This document shows positions 636 through 17,593 of a stretch of DNA of 20,000 nt, one piece after another. The notes beneath the pieces were generated by a model. It saw nothing but the letters and a program-made list of their open reading frames with translations. It made no database searches and was not told the origin of the DNA. The translations under genes were made by a program, and so were the position numbers. The DNA is from an uncultured virus (IMG/VR IMGVR_UViG_2897109615_000002) (lineage: Duplodnaviria > Heunggongvirae > Uroviricota > Caudoviricetes), in IMG/VR virus record IMGVR_UViG_2897109615_000002, positions 107,162 to 127,161 of that record; one strand, given 5' to 3'. How positions within the stretch are numbered: position 1 is the stretch's first letter; every line of letters starts with the position of its first letter.

Positions 636-649
636 TGAGTGGCTTTTTT
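621..649 (+). terminator. Rho-independent terminator after ORF 9-635
   Basis: AAAGTCGCTCA-ATAA-TGAGTGGCTTT hairpin (with G-U pairs) running into a T tract and overlapping the stop codon. Confidence 0.7.
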
Positions 650-698
650 ATGTGCCCTAAAAATCACTCTCCCCTACTCGAAAGGATGTGACCTATAT

Positions 699-3600
699 TT
701 GAGTCAAGATTTAAAGATCATACTCACACCCAAAGCTGATACTTCTTCAAAAACTGTCGAACAGTTAAATCAGCAAATTAAATCTTTAGAGAAAAAGCTA
801 AATTCCCTTAATTTAAAGACCAATATTGATGCCTCTGCTTTAAAGACTCTCAACGAATTCTCCTCTGCAGTTGACACTTATCAAAAACATCTCAAATCCT
901 TCAATCAAACAGTTAAAGAAACTACAACGATTACCAGAAATGCTGATGGCACTGTTGAAAAGCTTACGCAGCAGTATAAGAAAAATGGCGAAATCATTCA
1001 GCGTGAAACAAAGACCATAGACAATCGTAATCAATCATTACGTGAACAAACACAAGAAGTTAACAGGCTTGCTCAAGCCACTGAAAAACTTGGTCAGGTA
1101 CAGAAAAGAACAGAACAAAAGAATTCTCAAGGACAAACAACGAGAGTTACTCAAAAGAACCGCAATGGCTTCGATGATATAACTTATACGACTGACCCAA
1201 AAACAAACGCTACTTCATCAAAAGTAACAACGAATTATGATCAACAACGAAACGCTATTGAACAATTAAAGCTGGATTTAGAAAAACTTAGACAACAAGG
1301 AATTGTAACCGATACTACCCTCTCTTCTCTTGGCCGGAAATTAAACACTGCTCAAACAGCACAACAAATTGAAGCATTACAAAACAGAATTAAGATGCTC
1401 GATGATAAGTCTGCTGCTGTGGCGAAAAATAATGAACTCAGAAAAACTATTGAGTTGTATCAACGCCAAGCGCAGGTAAACGTACAAAACCTTAATACAC
1501 GTTACGGCGATACAATGGGTGCCGGCAATAGACAAGCTACTCAAGATTATTTAAATGCAGTAAATAGTCTTAATGTAAGTGCCGGCGGTAGTAATATCAG
1601 ATCTCAAATGCAAAGCTTGAACATGCAATTCAGGGAATTAGCTTCAAATGCTCAAACAGCGTCTAGTCAAGCCTCGTCTTTTGGTGCGGAGCTAACTCAA
1701 GCTTTCAAAAGCATGTCTACATATTTAATCTCCGGTTCTTTGTTCTATGGTGCTATATCTGGGCTCAAGGAAATGGTCTCCCAGGCTGTTGAAATTGATA
1801 CTCTAATGACAAACATCAGACGTGTAATGAATGAGCCTGATTATAAGTACAATGAGCTACTCGAGGAATCAATAAACCTAGGAGACACCCTTTCAAACAA
1901 GATCACTGACATACTTCAAATGACTGGCGATTTCGGGCGTATGGGGTTCGATGAAAGTGAACTGTCCACTCTAACAAAAACCGCTCAGGTACTTCAAAAC
2001 GTCTCTGACTTGACTCCTGACGACACAGTTAACACTTTAACTGCCGCAATGTTAAACTTCAATATTGCTGCGAATGATTCTATCTCAATTGCAGATAAGC
2101 TTAATGAAGTCGATAACAACTATGCTGTAACTACTCTTGACCTAGCGAATTCGATTCGAAAAGCAGGAAGCACCGCTTCCACTTTTGGCGTTGAATTAAA
2201 CGATCTGATTGGTTATACTACAGCAATTGCAAGTACCACCCGTGAATCAGGAAACATTGTTGGTAACTCACTTAAAACCATTTTTGCACGTATTGGGAAT
2301 AATGACAGCTCAATTAAAGCCTTAGAACAGATTGGTATTTCTGTGAAAACTGCCAGTGGTGAGGCGAAATCTGCTACTGATTTAATTAACGAGTTAGCAG
2401 ACAAATGGAATACCCTCAGCGATGCTCAAAAACAAAATACCTCAATAGGTGTAGCGGGCATTTATCAGCTTTCTAGATTTAATGCCTTGATGAATAATTT
2501 CTCCATATCACAAAATGCAGCGACCACTGCAGCTAATTCCGCAGGAAGCGCTTGGAGTGAACAGCAGAAATACGCTGACAGTTTACAGGCAAGATTAAAC
2601 AGGCTGTCAAACGCATTTACAGAAATGTCGGTTGCCTCAAGTGAAGCCTTCATCTCTAATAGCATTGTTGTTTTTGCAGATGCACTTAAAGGATTAATGC
2701 AAACAAGTGCTCAAATTACTAAAACAGTCGGGCTCCTCCCTCAAGTTTTTGGTTCTGCGACAACTGCAATCCTGCTTTTCAACACCTCTCTTCGTACAGC
2801 TACCATCTCAACTGGAATGTCTGCAATATCAACCCTTAAAAATCTTGTCTTAAACTTTAATGCTGTTGGGCTTGGTGCAACAACAGCTTCAGCTAAAACT
2901 GCAGTTTGGACACGAGTGGTTAATGCTTCAAGCGTTGCGATGAGCAATCTAAAGAAAGTCGCAGTCTCGACAAGCGCTTTTTTAGCAGGCAGTTTTCTTC
3001 CAATGGCAGCTATGGTTGGACTTGGCGTCGTTATTGAGAAACTCATTTCCTCTTATTCTGAATTAAAACAAGCTAGGGAAGACTTTGAACAAGCTAAAAC
3101 TACTAGCATTGAAGCAATTACAACCAATAAAGATGAAACTGATAAACTGATTAGCCAATACAAAGAACTGCAAAAGGCTAAAGATGGCGGGGCTTTATCA
3201 GCCAATCAGGAGCAAGAATACCTACAAGTAACACAACAATTAGCACAAACATTCCCGAATTTGATCGCTGGTTATGATTCTCAAGGGCAAGCAATCTTAA
3301 AGAAAAACCAAGCACTTAAGGATGCTATAAAGTACACTGAAGACCTTAGTAATTTAAACAAAAAAGACATTCAAACAGGTGCCAATAGTAACTTTAAGCA
3401 AAGCTTAAAAGACATTGATAAACTCAATGATAAGATTAAACAGTATAAGCAGGTTGCTGATTATTATAAAAACGGCAAGAGCTGGGATATTTTCTCTTCT
3501 GAAAATGACAAAAAAAATCAAGGTATTAAAGCTGAACAAGATGCACTACGTACTGAACAAGAGCTATCCAGCTCACAGGCTAAAATTAGAGAGCAAGTGC

Positions 3601-5099
3601 AACAGACAATTGATGCCTTTAACTCAATAAAGATAAATCCGAATCTTTCAAGGGAAATATCTAACGCATTCGATAAAATCGACTTCAGCAAAATGAATGC
3701 AGATGAACTTGAGTCATTTTCAATAAATGTTTCGAAATACATGGATAATATCCAAAAAGCTCTGCAATCGGGCAATAAAAATAATTTTGATTCCGCCTCT
3801 AAAAGCTTAGAACAGCTCGTTAATCAATATATGAGTGGCAAAGATAAAGCTAATGGTTTGGCTTTATCTTATGATGACCTTAAAACTGCCATTGACTCTA
3901 CAAATGATTCTGCACAAACTGCAAAAGTAACATGGGATGAAAATGGTGAAGGTGTAGATGCATTAGGTGAGCAAGTCGGGAATTTATCTGACAAGCTCAA
4001 AGAGGCTAAAGGTGATTTTGAAGCAATTAAAGGAATCATCGATGATTTAGTTGAATCGAAACAAAATGATGCTGCTATATCTGCCATTCAAAATGAAGCT
4101 TATGACACTATGTCTGACAGCATCTCCCCTTTAAATAGCCTCCTTGAGAAAATGTCTGAAGGTAAAAGTATATCTGCAACAGAAGCCATGAAGCTTATTC
4201 AGAAAGAACATGATCTTGCTGATGCAATTTCAGTTGAAAATGGTGTTGTAAAAATCAACAGAAATGCAGTTGTTAAGCTTCGGGACACAAAACTCAAAGC
4301 TTACAATGATATGCAACAATCTGTAAGACAAGATCTAATTAATCAGGCTAATGCATTAAACAAAAAGATTAATATGTATAAGTCTGAAGTCAAGGCTATC
4401 AAGACTGTTCAAGACGCTTATAAAATGAAGTCTGAGCTTGAAGATAACAAGAAAAAGATATACGACGAACTAAAAAAAGGGAACAGTGGTGCGCTGCAGT
4501 TCCTACCGAAAACACAGGATGATTTAAATCAGGTCACTGATATCACTGATCAGCTTAAAGAGCTTGATAAACTAGCCGATTTGGCTTCAACTTCCCTATC
4601 TGAAACAGGAACATCTCTTGATGACCTGTCTTCTTCAAGTGATAAAGCCTCTGAGGAAATGAAAACATCTATGTATGTGGCTGATAAATACAAGGAAGCT
4701 CTGGAGAAAGTCAACGCTGAAGTTGAAAAGTACAATAAGCAGGTAAACGACTATCCAAAGTATTCTCAAAGTTATCGAAATGCCCTGCAGAAAGAAATTA
4801 AAGCTCTCCAACAAAAGAAAAAGCTTATGCAGGAGCAAGCCAAACTCCTCAAGGATCAAATTAAGTCAGGGAACATTACACAATACGGTATTGTAACCTC
4901 TTCCCTCTCCGCTGGTTCATCTTCTGGTAGTTCTTATACTTCCGGTGGCGGGTCTTACTCCGGTAAATACTCCAGTTACATTAATTCTGCGGCAAGTAAA
5001 TACGGTGTTGATCCAGCTCTAATTGCAGCTGTGATTCAGCAAGAATCTGGTTTCAATGCAAGAGCTCGTTCTGGAGCTGGAGCTGCTGGTTTGATGCAG
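699..5099 (+). CDS. yomI: Tape measure protein / peptidoglycan hydrolase YomI (CwlP), exon 1 (1467 codons)
   Basis: SD-like AAAGGATGTG (681-690) precedes an in-frame TTG at 699. Contains a TP901-type tape measure core, hydrophobic central segments and long coiled coils. It ends in the first half of the lytic transglycosylase: AAVIQQES (catalytic Glu codon 5043-5045) ... GAAGLMQ. Confidence 0.92.
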
Positions 5100-5370
5100 G
5101 TGCGACCGTAAGGTCATGTAAGAAATTTTCTTTAGCAAGAAACAGGTACGATCACGTCTCCTGTCATCACTCAACTTATCCGGGAAGGAAACTGAACGGG
5201 GAGTGTAGCATGTTGAGAAAGCCATAAGTTATCGAAATACCACGGTACGACTGAATGGCAAGATGAAAAGTTGTAAACAAGGATGAAAGCTAAACTGCTT
5301 AAACGATAGTCCGAGGTGATTAAAGGGCCATCTATAACGGAAGGTATTTATAAACGTTATACAACCAATA

Positions 5371-5399
5371 CCCTATTGATTAATTGCATGTCAATCGGG
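5371..5399 (+). other. Intron domain I EBS1/delta stem-loop
   Basis: Stem CCCTATTGA/TCAATCGGG. The loop contains TAATTGCAT (5381-5389), complementary to the ligated junction ATGCAG|TTG with two G-U pairs. It lies ~285 nt into the intron, similar to EBS1 in LtrB. Confidence 0.75.
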
Positions 5400-5657
5400 A
5401 GTGATCTAAAGGTTGACCGTCTTCAATAAGAAGAAAAGGACGAACGTCGCATCCGAAATTACAACGCGCTTGTTCTTACATGTGCTAAACGGTGATTACC
5501 TAAGTTGGAATGCTTAATAGCTATGGCATTTAGTGCCTGAATATCCAATAAGGTAACGGAGTTTCCGTAGTAGTCCGAGGTAGGGAAAGCCTACCACATG
5601 GCGAAGGGAAACAGCTTATCATGTCTTACACAAAAATGGAAAGGAGCGTGAGGCTCT

Positions 5658-7481
5658 ATGAGAAGTCCACAAGTCGTGTTAGACAGTCTAGCGAGACAAA
5701 CAACTCGTTCGGATTATAAATTTAAACGTCTATATAGAAATTTGTACAACACGGAATTTTATCTCTTAGCCTATTCAAACATCTATTCTAAAGAAGGAAA
5801 TATGACAGAAGGTGCCGACGGTCAAACTATCGACGGTATGAGCCTAGAACGCATTGAGAATTTGATTAACAGTCTTAAAGATCACAGCTATCAACCAAAA
5901 CCATCGAAACGAACATATATCCCAAAGAAGAACGGGAAAAAACGTCCATTGGGTATACCATCATTCGAAGATAAGTTGCTACAGGAAGTAGTGAGAATGC
6001 TTCTTTCAAGCATCTATGACAAAACGTTTTCCACAGTGTCCCACGGGTTTCGGCCTAATCGAAGTTGTCATACTGCTCTAACCCAGGCAAAAAATAAATT
6101 CACTGGTACTAAGTGGTTCATAGAAGGCGATATAAAAGGTTTCTTTGACAACATAGATCATCATATCCTTATAAACATTCTCAGAAGGAAAATTGATGAC
6201 GAAAACTTTATTAGTCTCATATGGAAATTCCTCAGAGCAGGCTTTCTTGAAGATTGGGTGTATCGTAAAACTTACAGTGGAACACCTCAAGGTGGGATCA
6301 TAAGCCCCATACTGTCGAATATCTACTTGAATGAACTGGATCAGTTCATCGAGAAATATAAAACATCTTTCGACAAAGGTAATTCTCGCAAGAGATTGAC
6401 AGAGTACCGCACAAAAGAAACGCGGCTCTTCCGAGCGAGAAATAAATACAAAAACAATTGGGACGACATGAACGAACAAGAAAAAGAAGATGCAATAGTT
6501 CACCTTAAACAACTTAAAAATGAAATGATGGAATTACCATATAAAGACCCTATGGACGATGGTTTTAAAAGGTTGCAATACGTGCGATACGCTGATGATT
6601 TCATTATCGGTGTTATTGGTAGCAAAGAGGACTGTGAAAGAATTAAAAAAGACATCACAGAATATCTTATCCAAGAGCTCAAAGTCGAGCTATCTCAAGA
6701 GAAAACACTAATCACCCACTCATCCAACAGAGCAAGATTCTTGGGATATGACATAAAGGTCAGTCATGATCCTTTAACTTCAAAACGCACCAGTAGTGGA
6801 CACAAGCAACGAACCAGATCAATGGTTTGTGAACTTCTTGTCCCTCATGAAGCGTGGAGAAACAAGCTTATTGAATACAAAGCGATAAGAATAGATTCGA
6901 AGAATCAGAAATGGAAATCAATGCACAGATCCCATCTTCTTCAAAATGATGACTTAGAGATCCTTGCGATATACAATGCTGAAATCAGAGGGTTATACAA
7001 CTATTATCGCTTAGCAAATAATGCATACAAGCTTCATCGCTTTAGTTACATTATGGAATACAGCATGTACAAAACATTTGCTTGTAAGTACAAATCAAGC
7101 GTTAGCAAAATCATCAGTAAGTATAGTGTGAATGGCAAATTTGCCGTAAGGTATCAGACGAAGAATGGGCAAAGAATTTCCTACTTTTACAATGATGGGT
7201 TTAGAAAGCAAACCGAAATTTCCAAAGATATCTCTATAGACGCCGTCCCGATGGGACGAGGAATTATTTATAATAGAACGAGTTTGATTGATAGACTTTT
7301 AGCGGAAAAATGCGAATGGTGCAATAGTACAAACGTGCCACTTGAAATTCATCACGTTAGGAAGCTAAAAGACCTAAAAGGCAAGAAAAGATGGGAAAAG
7401 CGCATGGTTGAAAGAAAACGTAAAACCATGGCGCTTTGTAAAGACTGCCATCTCAAATTGCACAACGGAAAGCTAGATTGA
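5658..7481 (+). CDS. ltrA: Group II intron-encoded protein: reverse transcriptase/maturase with C-terminal HNH endonuclease (LtrA-like)
   Basis: RT motifs RPLGIP, SHGFRPNRSCHTAL, EGDIKGFFDNIDH, GTPQGGIISPILSNIYL, YVRYADD (YADD 6588-6599) and FLGY. X domain EIRGLYNYY. Endonuclease domain CEWC...EIHHVRKLKDL...CKDCHLKLH. Confidence 0.96.
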   Translation: MRSPQVVLDSLARQTTRSDYKFKRLYRNLYNTEFYLLAYSNIYSKEGNMTEGADGQTIDGMSLERIENLINSLKDHSYQPKPSKRTYIPKKNGKKRPLGIPSFEDKLLQEVVRMLLSSIYDKTFSTVSHGFRPNRSCHTALTQAKNKFTGTKWFIEGDIKGFFDNIDHHILINILRRKIDDENFISLIWKFLRAGFLEDWVYRKTYSGTPQGGIISPILSNIYLNELDQFIEKYKTSFDKGNSRKRLTEYRTKETRLFRARNKYKNNWDDMNEQEKEDAIVHLKQLKNEMMELPYKDPMDDGFKRLQYVRYADDFIIGVIGSKEDCERIKKDITEYLIQELKVELSQEKTLITHSSNRARFLGYDIKVSHDPLTSKRTSSGHKQRTRSMVCELLVPHEAWRNKLIEYKAIRIDSKNQKWKSMHRSHLLQNDDLEILAIYNAEIRGLYNYYRLANNAYKLHRFSYIMEYSMYKTFACKYKSSVSKIISKYSVNGKFAVRYQTKNGQRISYFYNDGFRKQTEISKDISIDAVPMGRGIIYNRTSLIDRLLAEKCEWCNSTNVPLEIHHVRKLKDLKGKKRWEKRMVERKRKTMALCKDCHLKLHNGKLD

Positions 7482-7489
7482 TAAGTGGA

Positions 7490-7584
7490 GAGCCGTATAC
7501 ATCGAGAGGTGTACGTACGGTTCGGAGAGGAGTTCTTGGAAACCTAGCATAGAGATATGCCAAGGCGCCGGGTTCTTACTCTAC
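7490..7584 (+). ncRNA. Group II intron catalytic domain V and branch domain VI
   Basis: 34-nt DV GAGCCGTAT-ACATC-GAGA-GGTGT-AC-GTACGGTTC with AGC triad, GNRA loop and AC bulge. The DVI stem has a bulged A 7 nt from the 3' end (IIA spacing), and the intron ends in AC. Confidence 0.93.
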
Positions 7585-10074
7585 TTGATGCCATCCACAG
7601 CTAAGAGCTTGGGTGTAAGCAATGTTTATGATCCTTATCAGAGCATTATGGGTGGTACGAAATATCTAGCCCAACAACTAAGCAAATTTGGTGGCAATGT
7701 TGAGAAAGCACTTGCTGCTTATAACGCAGGGCCTGGTAATGTAATTAAATATGGCGGCGTCCCTCCCTTCAAAGAAACTCAGAATTATGTTCAGAAGATC
7801 ATGTCAAACTACACCAAGTCAATGACTTCCGCTAATTCCTCCATTGCAAGCTACTACACGAAGAACAGCGCTTTTAGAATAAGTTCTAAGTATGGTGCAC
7901 AAGATGGCGCTTACCGATCAACTCCACATAAAGGTGTCGACTTCGCAGCAAAAGCTGGAACCGCAATCAAATCGGTTCAGAGTGGGAAAGTTCAAATTGC
8001 TGGCTATAGTAAAACTGCCGGTAACTGGGTTGTCATTCAGCAGGATGATGGAAAAGTTGCTAAGTATATGCATATGCTTGATACCCCTTCTGTTAAAGCC
8101 GGTCAAACTGTTAAAGCTGGTCAGACCATCGGTAAAGTTGGCAGTACGGGTAATTCAACAGGAAATCACCTTCATCTTCAAATTGAGGAAAACGGAAAGA
8201 CCATTGACCCTGAGAAGTATTTAAAAGGTGTCGGTACATCTATTTCAGATGCATCTCAAGCTGAAGCAGAACGACAGCAAGCAATAGCACAAGCCAAATC
8301 CGATCTTCTCTCCCTCCAAGGTGACATTGACTCAGTAAACGATCAGATACAAGAGCTCAGATATGAGATCGTTCAATCGAAGCTCGATGAGTATGACAAA
8401 CGTATTGGTGATTTTGATGTAAGAATCGCTAAAGACAAAGCCCTCGCTAGTCATTATCTGAGCGATAGTAAAGAGTTCCGTAAGTATACAAACGATCAGA
8501 AAAAAGCTTTAACTGAACAGCAAAAGATTCAGAGTCAGAAGGTTTCTTTTATTGAAAAAGAAATCAAAACAAACAAAACTTTGAATGCTGCTCAAAGAGC
8601 ACAGCTTGCTGAGGAATTAAAACAAGCTAAGATTGATCTCATCAATTTCCAAGAAGAAGTAAGAGAACTTCAGGGACAGCTCATCCAATCCAAAGTTGAT
8701 GAAACGCTTAACGGCATAGAGAAATCAACCAAGAAAACTGAATCCAAGCTTAAAGATGTTGGAAACAAAATATCCATGACCGAGGAAGATAAAGACAAGG
8801 TTAAATATTATAGCCAACAGATTAAGCTTATTCAGCAACAGCAGACTGAAGCGAAGAAGTATATCAAACAGTTGGAAGCACAAAAGAAAGCTGCCAAAGG
8901 GTTCCCGGATATTCAGAAACAAATTACTGAAGAAATCGAGAACTGGAAAGACAAGCAGAAGGATTACAATCTGGAGCTTTACAACACAAAGAAATCAATC
9001 AAAGATGTGTACAAATCCCTTGCTGATGAAGTTGTCTCCATCTACAAAGAGATGTACGAAAAGATGCGTGATATTGAATTAAAAGCGCATCAAAAAGCTA
9101 CGCAAGACTTGATTGATGAGATTGATAAAACTGATGATGAAGCTAAATACCAAAAAGAGCTCAAAGAAAAGAATCAGGCTATTCAGGAAACCAAAGATAA
9201 ACTAAACAAACTATCCCTTGATGACTCTGATGAAGCAAAATCACAGGTTAAAGACTTGGAAAAGCAACTTCAAGAACAGCAAGAAGCATTAGATGAGTTT
9301 CTTAAAGATCGTGAAAACAGTAAACGAAAAGAATCGTTACAAGATCAGCTTCAAAAAGATGAAGATTCAATTAACAAGAAATATGATGATCTCGTCAATG
9401 ATGAGCGTGGGTTTAAGGAACTTGAGAAAAAGCTAATGGATGGGAAGATTACTGATATTGCTAAGCAACTGAATGAATTCTCTAAGTTCATTAACAGCAA
9501 TATGGAGTCCATTGGGAAAAGCATCTCTAATAACCTTATCGATAAGCTTAAAGAAGCCTCTAATGCCCTTAATACTGTGACCAAAGGCAATAAAACTGGA
9601 AAAAAGGTATCTTCTTTTGCATCGGGTGGATACACAGGAACAGGACTCGGCGCAGGTAAGCTCGCCTTCCTTCATGATAAAGAGCTTATCCTAAATAAAA
9701 CAGATACTGAAAATATGCTTGAAACTGTAAAGCAAGTTCGCAATCTGTCTAATAACGATTTGAATAATGAAACACCTAAATGGGGGCAAGGTGGAAAATT
9801 AGCAGCTTTGATTAACAAAGGGATTACCTCTATTCCATCAATAATTCCGAATATTAATCAATCCAGTCTTTCTAATAGTTTGATACCGAGTATTCAAAGC
9901 CTCTCTTCCCCACCAGATGCTACTAAGTCAGTAAACGGCACTGTAAACAACAATAATTTTAAAGCTACATTTAACATTAATGAATCAGAAAATCCTCAGA
10001 AAACAGCTGATTTTGTATTCAATAAATTTGCAAATGGTCTTAAAAACAAGGGCATAAATTTCAACAACTCATGA
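7585..10074 (+). CDS. yomI: YomI (CwlP) exon 2: rest of lytic transglycosylase, M23 peptidase, coiled-coil C-terminus
   Basis: LMPSTA...ALAAYNAGPGNV...ETQNYV completes the SLT fold. M23 motifs HKGVD (7927) and HLH (8167-8175) follow, then a typical tape measure C-terminal FASGGYTG...LHDKELIL motif. Confidence 0.92.
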   Translation: MMPSTAKSLGVSNVYDPYQSIMGGTKYLAQQLSKFGGNVEKALAAYNAGPGNVIKYGGVPPFKETQNYVQKIMSNYTKSMTSANSSIASYYTKNSAFRISSKYGAQDGAYRSTPHKGVDFAAKAGTAIKSVQSGKVQIAGYSKTAGNWVVIQQDDGKVAKYMHMLDTPSVKAGQTVKAGQTIGKVGSTGNSTGNHLHLQIEENGKTIDPEKYLKGVGTSISDASQAEAERQQAIAQAKSDLLSLQGDIDSVNDQIQELRYEIVQSKLDEYDKRIGDFDVRIAKDKALASHYLSDSKEFRKYTNDQKKALTEQQKIQSQKVSFIEKEIKTNKTLNAAQRAQLAEELKQAKIDLINFQEEVRELQGQLIQSKVDETLNGIEKSTKKTESKLKDVGNKISMTEEDKDKVKYYSQQIKLIQQQQTEAKKYIKQLEAQKKAAKGFPDIQKQITEEIENWKDKQKDYNLELYNTKKSIKDVYKSLADEVVSIYKEMYEKMRDIELKAHQKATQDLIDEIDKTDDEAKYQKELKEKNQAIQETKDKLNKLSLDDSDEAKSQVKDLEKQLQEQQEALDEFLKDRENSKRKESLQDQLQKDEDSINKKYDDLVNDERGFKELEKKLMDGKITDIAKQLNEFSKFINSNMESIGKSISNNLIDKLKEASNALNTVTKGNKTGKKVSSFASGGYTGTGLGAGKLAFLHDKELILNKTDTENMLETVKQVRNLSNNDLNNETPKWGQGGKLAALINKGITSIPSIIPNINQSSLSNSLIPSIQSLSSPPDATKSVNGTVNNNNFKATFNINESENPQKTADFVFNKFANGLKNKGINFNNS

Positions 10075-15040: not shown

Positions 15041-17593
15041 TTGAACGACAATTTAATTCCCGTAAACACAATGGGTTATATGGACGAAGAAACAGAGCAA
15101 TGGATACCCATTGATGCTATAGGGTTAAAATCAAATAATATCAGATATACTGCAGACGATATTCAAGAGGCTTTTGATAAAGCTTCTAAGGATATTAAAA
15201 ACGTAATAAGCACAGTCGATTCTGGTTTAACAGATATCACAAACACTATTGGAGACATTTCAAAAATCCCTGCCTCCGGCGCAACTGTTGTTGATAAAGT
15301 TTTAAATGAATTTATCAGACGAAGTGTTAATGTTCAGGATTTCGGAGCTAAGGGTGACGGGGTTACTGATGACACTAAAGCTTTTGAAGCTGCTTTTGCA
15401 AGTGGGAAACGAGAGGTTTTTGTTCCTGCAGGCATTTACATGGTTCAAGGATTGCACATCCCCTCTTATGTCAGACTTTACGGTGTTGGTTCAGGGTCTA
15501 TTATCAAACTTCATCCTTCAGCTACTGGAACATCTTGCGTTCTAACAAACAGTGACTACACTAACGGAAACGAATATATCTTAATTGAAGACTTAGACCT
15601 TGATTGGAATTTAGACAAAAAGGATAACATCATTACAAACGGCACAAATGCAAACTGTGTGGGCATTGTTAACTCTAAATTTGTTCGGGTTAGAAACGTC
15701 AATGCTCGTAATCCAGGTGTACACGGTTTTGATGTAAGCTCCCCTGTTTGGAATTCTTCCACTGATACTAATGGAGCTGAAAAATATCAACCCAACGGTA
15801 GCAAATATGTGTGGATTGAAAATTGTACTGCAACTAATTATGGTGACGATGGCTTCACAACTCACTATTCTGATTACATCTTCTTCACTAACTGTTACGC
15901 CTATGACGCAAATGGATCTGCGCACAGCAAAGGAGCCTCGAATTCAAACGGTTTTGAAATTGATGATGGCTCTAAAAACGTGTGGCTTGTGAACTGTTAC
16001 AGCCGAAAAAACTGTAGAGGTTTTGAAGTTAAGGCTCACAACAGAGCACCAGCAGCAAGAAACGTAAACTTAATTAACTGCTATTCCGAAAATGATATCC
16101 GTGCATTTGACTTTAGACACATCGGCTTCCACCTAGCTTCTGAAAAACCCTCCCCAAATGCATTTGACATTAATGTCGTTAACTGCACTGCACAACATCC
16201 TATTTTCAGTGACCTTTATCAAGGTTTAAATCCTCGCGCACTTGTTATTTCCGCTTATAGAAATGTCAACGTATCAAACTTCAACGCAATTGGTGACCCG
16301 ACATATGATTACAAAAATACTACAGTAATCTCTACTCAATATAAGAGCAGAAATATCAACCTAAGCAACATCACTGTTTCGGGGTTTACAACAGCAAGTA
16401 ACGATATCTATGTAATCGGTGGAGCTCAAAAATCAGACAATGTAAACATCTCAAATGTAACCATTGACCAATCTGCTTTAGTAGGTATTGCTGTTGGAAG
16501 TAAAGTTGATTCAGTTAATATCAGTAACGTTAACATGACGGGAACAAACAAAGCAGGTTCAATAGGTGTTTATTGCACTAACTCACAGGCCAATATTAGC
16601 GCTGCGATGTGTAAACAATACGCTACTCCCAGTAAAATTGCCGGAAAAACCTACACGTTTATCCCGAATAATTTCAAAGGCGGTCTACGCGGGGCTACGA
16701 CTTCTGGCTATGCTAAAACAAATACTAGTGCAGTATTAGCTTCATCGGGTGAGCCTCAAGCACTTGGGGATGCTACTTTAGTTGGTGCCACTACTGGAGG
16801 ATGCGTTGCAAAGGGAACAAGAACCAACGTTTTGGTTCATCAGGCGGAAGCTCTGTAGACGGATCTCGTAGCGGTGTTTACAACTCCAATGATTCTCACA
16901 TCGAGGGGCAAAATGTATCACGTGAAATCCACGCTTCTGGCGGTGTAAAGCTTGGTGAAAATGATCGCTATATGGTGGTTGGCGGATATGGCGCTACTCC
17001 CTCTAGAGCAAATATTAAATGGATGCTAAACTCCATGAATGGAGATATAACATCTGCAGGGAAGATGAATGGTGGAGCAACCTTTAGTGATTACGCTGAG
17101 TATTTTGAAAGCCTTGACGGAAAAGCAATTCCGACAGGGACAATTGTCACTCTTGAAGGAGCTAAAATTCGCCCAGCGAGAAAAGGTGAAGATGTACACG
17201 GAGTAATTCCGAAACTGCAGGAACTATATTAGGCGGAGCTGATATTCACTGGCAAGGCAGGTATTTAAAGAACGAGTTCGGTGGATACATATATGAAGAT
17301 GTGGTCAACCAGAAACTGGTGATGTTAAGAAACTGCCTAAAGTAAACCCTGAGTGGATTGAAAAAATAGATTACGTCCCTCGTGAAGAACGTCCTGAATG
17401 GAATATAGTAGGATTGCTTGGACAGGTTTATGTGAAAGTGGACAGTACTGTTTCTGTGGGAGATCGAATTGAAGGTAATTATGGAATCGGCACAAAAACA
17501 GAAGACAGGTTTTACTCTTGGAAGGCTATGGAGATTGTAACTCCATATTCAGACAAGCTCGGTTATGGCATTGCCATCTGCTTAATTAAGTAA
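15041..17593 (+). CDS. Beta-helix tail spike/appendage (pectate-lyase-like, yomE position) with C-terminal Peptidase_G2-type intramolecular chaperone; three single-base deletions in this sequence
   Basis: VNVQDFGAKGDGVTDDTKAF beta-helix start with parallel beta-helix repeats. The downstream frames encode DYAEYFES, HWQGRYLKNEFGG and YVPREERPEWNIVGLLGQVYVK, resembling the phi29 gp12 C-terminal domain. Adding 1 nt each at ~16833, ~17208 and ~17310 gives one 851-aa ORF ending at TAA 17591-17593. Confidence 0.8.

Follow-up and report, generated by a model that had tools for sequence, protein, structure and literature searches.

The DNA analysed here, a stretch of 20,000 nucleotides that we call the window, belongs to a 127-kb provirus record (SPbeta-like, Bacillus). 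Within it, a group IIA intron of 2485 nt (5100..7584, plus strand) splits the gene for a tail tape-measure protein inside its lytic transglycosylase (SLT) domain. We consider it highly probable that this is an intact mobile intron, guided to its target by base pairing, and that it belongs to a clade which is specialised for a conserved SLT motif, has moved horizontally and makes occasional ectopic jumps to look-alike sites. An earlier interpretation of the same letters (the sequence-only reading) had proposed both the pairings with the exons and a specialisation for transglycosylase genes.

The host gene resembles yomI/CwlP of SPbeta. Its 5' exon (639..5099, plus strand; open reading frame (ORF) 639..5111) has Pfam matches to PhageMin_Tail and SLT and ends within the SLT domain at AGLMQ, and its 3' exon (7585..10074, plus strand) takes up the remaining SLT domain, from LMPST to AYNAGPGN, and continues into Peptidase_M23. 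The SLT profile PF01464, of 117 positions, is split at 42/44: residues 1447-1487 of the 5' exon cover positions 2-42 and residues 2-68 of the 3' exon cover positions 44-116, with the motifs QQESGF, AGLMQ^LMP (a caret marks the splice site) and AAYNAGPGN all legible. The protein of the 3' exon is 84% identical in amino acids over 338 residues to yomI of SPBc2, phi3T, Goe phages and others; this orthology, together with PhageMin_Tail, SLT and Peptidase_M23, marks the host as a tape-measure protein of the YomI/CwlP type with a PF01464 domain. The intron lies in the sense orientation, and the frame across the junction reads GCT GGT TTG ATG CAG^TTG ATG CCA. The conserved Glu codon of the SLT E-S motif (5043..5045, plus strand) aligns with the E-[ST] of relatives, and we take it to be the catalytic residue from established knowledge of family 1 lytic transglycosylases. 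The claim that the intron targets a conserved catalytic motif thus holds insofar as GLMQ is a conserved active-site motif, but the catalytic Glu itself stands 19 codons upstream of the splice site.

As read from the sequence, the intron begins with GTGCGAC at 5100 and ends with CTCTAC at 7584. Domains V and VI (7488..7584, plus strand) match Rfam RF00029 with 61.9 bits (gathering score 40) over model positions 1-77 of 77, so that a class IIA start, 5' GUGYG (here GTGCG), is accompanied by a domain V/VI with the catalytic AGC and the branch-site helix. The intron-encoded protein (IEP), of 607 aa (5658..7481, plus strand), combines a reverse transcriptase (RVT_1, 6.9e-38), maturase X (Intron_maturas2, 3.9e-14) and an HNH endonuclease (AI2M-like_HNH, 1.8e-21), and it matches LtrA of Ll.LtrB over the full length (PDB 5g2x, E 2.4e-162). 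The ends agree with end-to-end alignment to related introns, and the boundaries are fixed by a 6395-nt metatranscriptome contig in which 5099 is joined exactly to 7585, with 2485 nt skipped and the ends GT..AC. For domains I-IV, RNAalifold gave local helices only, while related introns can be aligned with the 5' part over its whole length. A delta element directly 5' of the first exon-binding site (EBS1), as opposed to the separate EBS3 of classes IIB and IIC, is the defining layout of class IIA, and pair counts at +1 and +2 over 55 introns place delta beside EBS1 here. Judged on these features, 5100-7584 is an intact and, by all appearances, recently mobile group IIA intron of the LtrA-like kind with an endonuclease.

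The short strings from which the sequence-only reading built its pairings are indeed found at 5087-5092 (TGGTTT), 5094-5099 (ATGCAG), 5325-5330 (GGGCCA) and 5381-5389 (TAATTGCAT), with the TTG downstream of the intron at 7585-7587. All elements lie on the plus strand. EBS1 (TTGCAT, 5384-5389) and the delta bases (AA, 5382-5383) lie in the 11-nt loop TTAATTGCATG of a hairpin with the stem ATTGA/TCAAT (5375..5395), on the evidence of RNAalifold, loop alignments and exon controls. EBS1 can form six of six pairs, one of them G-U, with the intron-binding site IBS1 (ATGCAG, exon positions -6..-1, 5094..5099), that is, with the Met-Gln codons of GLMQ, and delta faces delta' (TT, the first two bases of the 3' exon, 7585..7586). 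EBS2 (GGGCCA, 5325..5330) can likewise form six of six pairs, three of them G-U, with IBS2 (TGGTTT, -13..-8, 5087..5092). The reading frame confirms that both G-U pairs singled out earlier, at G5099 and G7587, fall on third codon positions.

Taken from a single sequence, such matches prove little. For the G-U-tolerant 9-mer YRRYTGYRT, 10.55 occurrences would be expected in the window and 14 are present. When the 558-nt 5' part of the intron is shuffled 2000 times, 10% of the shuffles contain the 9-mer at least once, and EBS2-type 6-mers in this part number 11, where shuffles lead one to expect 11.3. Since none of these statistics is significant, and since minimum-energy and alifold models place EBS2 in no clear loop, it might be argued that EBS1 and EBS2 are chance matches and that the true exon-binding sites lie elsewhere in domain I. 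The case for pairing therefore rests on comparison with relatives. Across 63 non-identical introns, exon positions -12, -11, -10, -9 and -8 pair with columns 5329, 5328, 5327, 5326 and 5325 in 97, 94, 65, 83 and 81%, respectively, with 4-6 pair types at each position, which supports the placement of the EBS2 candidate GGGCCA opposite TGGTTT. EBS1 was compared across introns by sliding and anchored scoring; MAFFT columns misalign the loop between clades. Among the 55 introns for which both exons are known, EBS1 with delta forms 8/8 pairs against its own junction in 30 and 7/8 or more in 48, whereas against the junctions of other target classes the corresponding counts are 53 and 398 of 2324. 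Delta pairs at +1 in 46/55 introns and at +2 in 36/55 (cross controls, 47% and 30%). At +3, in contrast, T5381 would pair with G7587 in a manner shared by 26/55 introns, which is near chance; thus, of the proposal that the loop 5381-5389 pairs with ATGCAG^TTG, EBS1 and two delta pairs are upheld by comparison and the third delta pair is not.

The structure around these bases tells the same way. The stem of the EBS1 hairpin (5375-5379/5391-5395) shows compensatory changes among 13 relatives in RNAalifold, and on an excerpt of 130-220 nt the program recovered the hairpin; it also paired some of the EBS2 segment with upstream bases that do not vary, a part of the model on which we do not rely. 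EBS1 and IBS1 are moreover seen to change together: TTGTGT goes with ACACAG at locus L202, CTGCAT with ATGCAG at L204 and CTGTAT with ATGCAG at L059 and L203, and G(-1) pairs with C in L059 and L204. Exon covariation over 55-63 introns thus falls, position by position, exactly on the proposed segments, the EBS1 loop sits on a covarying stem, and an ectopic copy of this intron, inserted independently and described below, fits the same EBS2, EBS1 and delta. With these observations, coincidental matching becomes scarcely credible, and the comparison supports EBS1 with delta and EBS2 as located where the sequence-only reading had put them. In 12/12 GHMQ-type relatives, domain I contains an additional hairpin of about 37 nt immediately before the EBS1 hairpin; the intron of the window lineage has no such insertion (at 5366-5372).

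Related introns were gathered from genomes, plasmids, phages, viral contigs and metagenomes, and their ends were set by alignment to the ends of the window's intron. Plasmid records in the 60-80% identity band were covered in four of five cases; many metagenome and viral loci of about 50% identity have no defined boundaries and hence are unclassified by target and unlabelled in the trees. The expectation that close IEP homologues would share the insertion point was borne out, in that 15 of the 16 loci with an IEP of at least 70% identity occupy one homologous position, G(L/H)(M/T)Q^(L/F)M, in SLT or lysozyme-like genes. Two of these 15 SLT-site members (IEP identity 70-100%) are in prophages and 13 on plasmids or chromosomes. 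A second provirus, L083, has the site AGLMQ^LMP. The site GHMQ^FMP is found at L004, L005, L007-L011, L059 (whose exons are the same as those of plasmid L203), L115, L201 and L204, and GHTQ^FM at L202; L006 offers a 3' exon only, FLPCSW.

Hosts of the GHMQ type have SLT_2 matches and continue into NlpC/P60 or M23, or else stand alone. When the 5' exon ends of GLMQ and GHMQ hosts were compared by hhalign, the alignment ran through to the final column (probability 97.6%, E 2.7e-12); this, together with the Pfam coordinates, indicates that the insertion point is homologous between the two host types. A CwlT-type N-terminal domain in the relatives is suggested by their architecture only, since a PDB search with one 3' exon matched just the NlpC/P60 part. 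The plasmid copy L202, from Priestia megaterium, adjoins a TrbL/VirB6 gene. Its host hydrolase gene may be decaying while the IEP is intact and EBS1 tracks the changed exon ACACAG.

An ORF-less relative extends the pattern. In Thermoflavimicrobium daqui, an intron of 722 nt (L196; G001:C6, minus strand, 2099..1378) splits another PF01464 SLT gene, again at profile 42/44, at the site GARGVMQ^LMP, and its RNA is closest to introns of the SLT-site clade. The sequence-only reading had pointed out that the synonymous exon ATG CAA^TTA would pair perfectly, and precisely this exon exists at L196. The same organism has an intron-less SLT paralogue with the same motif (L200, 1362^1363), and the IEP of one T. 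daqui intron might mobilise the ORF-less L196 in trans. A related intron of T. daqui (L197) lies in mutS at FYEMF^FDD.

Trees of the IEPs show how closely target and ancestry go together. In an IQ-TREE analysis of 42 IEPs, all 15 SLT-site proteins fell into one clade with SH-aLRT support of 100, within which the window and L083 are sister to the other 13; FastTree, applied to 107 rows, gave the same clade with support 100, although some 46 of those rows carry no target label where the boundary search had failed. The clade that we define as homing to the SLT motif therefore includes the window on both counts, as one of its 15 rows and as an insertion at G-x-(M/T)-Q^(L/F)-M. Other targets behave alike: the RadC-site introns form one clade (21/21 rows), and introns in genes for Y-family polymerases (including that of Bacillus phage BUCT083), FtsK and DUF4138 proteins form one clade each. 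Further neighbouring targets are SSB, MutS, UvrD, a coupling protein, a C5 methylase and an NlpC/P60 hydrolase.

The sixteenth locus, L003, also from T. daqui, departs from this rule. Its intron is 98.9% identical in nucleotides to that of the window and lies antisense in the DDE domain of a Tn3 transposase, at CTGGCTCTTTGCAA^TTGATGC, which resembles the SLT site and matches the same EBS2, EBS1 and delta. The sequence-only reading had held that close homologues in unrelated targets would speak against it; the nearest copy is such a case, by what we read as one ectopic jump, and the other 15 of the 16 loci keep to the SLT motif. One might nevertheless suppose a generalist retroelement that enters any short look-alike, its presence in SLT genes being incidental and no specialisation existing. 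The position of L003 would suit such an element, as would the ectopic-looking sites of the more distant relatives L028, L033-L035 and L205 and the shortness of the recognised sequence, for which G-U-tolerant matches are common. A generalist does not, however, account for 15/16 loci and an ORF-less relative at one homologous codon boundary in many genera, nor for sister clades that are equally faithful to other motifs, and we hold this explanation to be very improbable.

Some loci lie outside this argument. Two introns of B. cereus-group plasmids, L205 and L206 (57-58% identity), were examined as candidates and have other sites, none of them SLT. L205, on a B. thuringiensis plasmid (1943-4412), is an intron of the type that targets Y-family polymerases and follows GGAAGAATTA^ in a non-coding or antisense context beside a highly repetitive ORF; this seems to be a further ectopic insertion into a similar sequence. 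Subclades of IEPs with about 50% identity (L101-L109, L119-L154 and other metagenome or viral loci) have fixed junctions of their own, for example TTQIYA^ (phase 2, recombinase-like), W(K/E)(G/S)xAQ(D/E)QLQ^ and YIKYL^. The contig L059, from a metagenome-assembled genome labelled Planctomycetaceae, has the same intron and exon flanks as the Metabacillus plasmid pB218 (L203) and is probably mis-binned.

A shared site could also reflect shared ancestry, if the intron had been inserted once in an ancestral SLT gene and had since descended vertically with its host. A single origin would equally yield a single clade of SLT-site introns, and the host types (PF01464 SLT in prophages, SLT_2-like domains elsewhere) do parallel the first split of the IEP clade. 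The degrees of divergence point the other way. IEP identity exceeded host-domain identity in 78/78 pairs, and when the window is set against its relatives, the IEPs are 70-77% identical and the host domains 26-37%. The introns of the window and L083 differ at 5/2485 bases (99.8% identical), whereas their flanking exons differ at 33/942 and 59/1394 (about 4%), and no tract of more similar exon was found beside the intron in this pair. Vertical co-descent is thus unlikely, the IEPs being closer than their hosts throughout and the intron far closer than the exons. It is likewise at odds with the varied architectures of the hosts (tape measure with M23, with NlpC/P60, with M23 otherwise, or stand-alone), with the near-identical ectopic copy and with the lack of the intron from 4/4 SPbeta-type phages. 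In all four phages fetched (SPBc2, BUCT082, BUCT083 and Goe11) the site GGATTAATGCAA^CTGATGCC is uninterrupted, with IBS1 perfect and +1 mismatched. Taking both sides together, we regard co-descent as decidedly unlikely.

Public sequencing runs bear on how the intron is carried. The intron, with the junctions on either side, is covered by contigs from two DNA runs and one RNA run; in these the exon alleles resemble those of L083 and the intron hardly varies. When viral contigs were scanned for the junction pattern ATGCAR+GTGCGNCCNTAAGG, L083's provirus was the only match, so that carriage by phages looks narrow. The suggestion that the intron could move among SLT genes of phages and conjugative elements is accordingly sustained by SLT-site relatives on plasmids and in prophages, but among phages it finds one prophage lineage only.

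Several observations weigh against our interpretation. Some members of the SLT-site clade are close copies and hence not independent, and the SLT_2 matches of the relatives are weak (22.5-37 bits, with a cut-off of 24.3). The target of L202 looks degenerate: its 3' exon is open for 46 codons only (5428-5565) and the FMPCTW motif is lost. The nearest copy, L003, is outside SLT genes, on a contig of 2968 nt whose genomic place is uncheckable. In the register GGGCCA with -13..-8, EBS2 makes six of six pairs with one G-U at the ectopic L003 site, whereas the pairing is weak at the window site, with its three G-U pairs in six, and weaker at the L083 allele (4/6); moreover, the best EBS2 register is one base off in GHMQ relatives compared with the window lineage, unless the loop alignment is itself off by one. 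The Rfam models D1-D4 gave no match to 5050-5750 at permissive thresholds (E up to 1), and the IIA label therefore has its basis in the LtrA-like IEP and in the position of delta, which adjoins EBS1 on its 5' side. The joined contig, coming from an RNA library, may be spliced mRNA or a transcribed or contaminating intron-less allele. The provirus of L083, the only match of the junction scan, is a relative of the window's own, and the public runs with an L083-like allele may be of the same lineage.

We nonetheless favour, with the high probability given at the outset, a mobile intron that reads its target by pairing. Its DNA target would be recognised mainly through RNA-DNA pairing, by EBS2 with TGGTTT, EBS1 with ATGCAG and delta with TT, and these target bases are the codons of the conserved G-L-M-Q^L motif of lytic transglycosylases, with the G-U pairs falling on synonymous positions. 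By its likeness to Ll.LtrB and LtrA, the excised lariat, bound to the IEP, would insert itself into the top strand by reverse splicing between ATGCAG and TTG, guided by EBS2, EBS1 and delta; a nick in the bottom strand, a few bases further downstream, would be made by the HNH domain, and the reverse transcriptase would copy the intron by target-primed reverse transcription. The intron presumably splices in vivo. Retrohoming or retrotransposition is suggested by the near-identical copies at two diverged alleles and at one ectopic site, an argument drawn from sequence comparison.

Selection holds the target motif nearly constant, and because the guides read its codons, one and the same intron can enter widely differing genes in which the motif occurs. 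That the lineage is specialised for it follows from the clade, whose members are all at the homologous G-x-(M/T)-Q^(L/F)-M site of SLT or lysozyme-like genes. A broader proposal, towards which we lean only slightly, is that DNA encoding G-x-M-Q^[LF]-M-P serves as a portable landing pad and that a living lineage shuttles between the hydrolase genes of conjugative plasmids or elements resembling integrative and conjugative elements and the tape-measure genes of SPbeta-like phages, across bacterial families. If true, the gene pools of plasmids and phages would be connected by a retroelement that uses an enzyme motif common to both, and the recent transfer from allele to allele and the ectopic jump would mean that the lineage is still active.

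Among known systems, the closest in mechanism is Ll.LtrB of Lactococcus lactis, which homes into the relaxase gene ltrB. The likeness covers the IEP, with its full-length match to LtrA and its reverse transcriptase, X and HNH domains, as well as the recognition of about 13 target bases by EBS2, EBS1 and an adjacent delta pair and the sense insertion in a conserved motif of a mobile-element gene. Unlike Ll.LtrB, the intron described here targets G-x-M-Q^[LF]-M of lytic transglycosylase or lysozyme-like domains and has a prophage tape-measure gene as its carrier, and what we say of it comes from sequence.

The nearest precedent for a split cell-wall hydrolase is B.th.I1 of the B. thuringiensis plasmid pAW63, which, by the passages available of the description (Van der Auwera et al. 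2005, PMC1196294, which also echoes the relaxase target of Ll.LtrB) and of a 2022 review (PMC9673590), lies in a conjugative cell-wall hydrolase like ORF14 of Tn916; our comparison is with that description. Its IEP is reported as only 44% identical to a B. megaterium IEP, and with so low an identity B.th.I1 may fall outside the SLT-site clade. Group II introns of the Bacillus cereus group in radC, mutS and uvrD/rep were described by Tourasse and Kolsto (2008, PMC2504315), and the sister clades of the window's IEP lie in the same genes (RadC at PRE(V/I)^F(K/R)EA, MutS at FYEMF^F, and UvrD). The available text of that paper reports no group II intron in identifiable prophages and uses the word transglycosylase 0 times.

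Group II introns were thought absent from phages until 2025, when, according to the accessible text of Merk, Jones and Eddy (PMC12350094), the first survey of phage group II introns presented 20 introns, including a IIA intron of BUCT083, and found group II intron matches in 9,229 IMG/VR contigs. These contigs may include the provirus of the window; the terms transglycosylase, tape measure and tail do not occur in the main text as available. The IEP of the intron in BUCT083, an SPbeta-type Bacillus phage, is the nearest phage relative of the window's IEP (56%). Unlike the window's intron, that of BUCT083 lies in uvrX, a Y-family polymerase gene, and the yomI site of this phage is empty. In BUCT083, the frame annotated for the 5' exon of uvrX (L001, 5238-5935) reaches a stop 15 nt upstream of the intron, and the frame continuous with the 3' exon stays open for 17 codons only, which suggests an upstream frameshift or a sequencing error.

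In the literature searched on group II introns with transglycosylases, tape measures, SPbeta and conjugative hydrolases, we found no description of a lineage specific for the SLT motif. The observation is confirmed, and its interpretation supported: a motif-homing IIA intron of known type, whose target family is undescribed in the papers searched and whose carrier, a phage tape-measure gene, is unusual. In the window itself, the host gene is followed by a tail module and lysis genes. Further along, overlapping ORFs at 15041-16858 and 16801-17232 match the PHROG pre-neck appendage protein at profile positions 121-631 and 608-742; this tail gene (15041-17232) is either frameshifted or deliberately split.

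Since the mechanism is that of the known Ll.LtrB type, the gain is in natural history and specificity rather than in a new principle. Here an SPbeta-like prophage harbours an intact group II intron in an essential late structural gene, and the intron's arrival there can be clearly accounted for; the target of its clade is a short, strongly conserved coding motif common to phages and conjugative elements. For annotation there is a warning, in that tape-measure or transglycosylase genes and conjugative hydrolase genes split by such an intron are labelled as separate or 'hypothetical' ORFs. SPbeta and B. subtilis provide a tractable system for testing retrohoming into phage genomes. Finally, with compensatory pairs visible among its relatives, the intron offers a natural example of target specificity evolving through small changes in the exon-binding sites.

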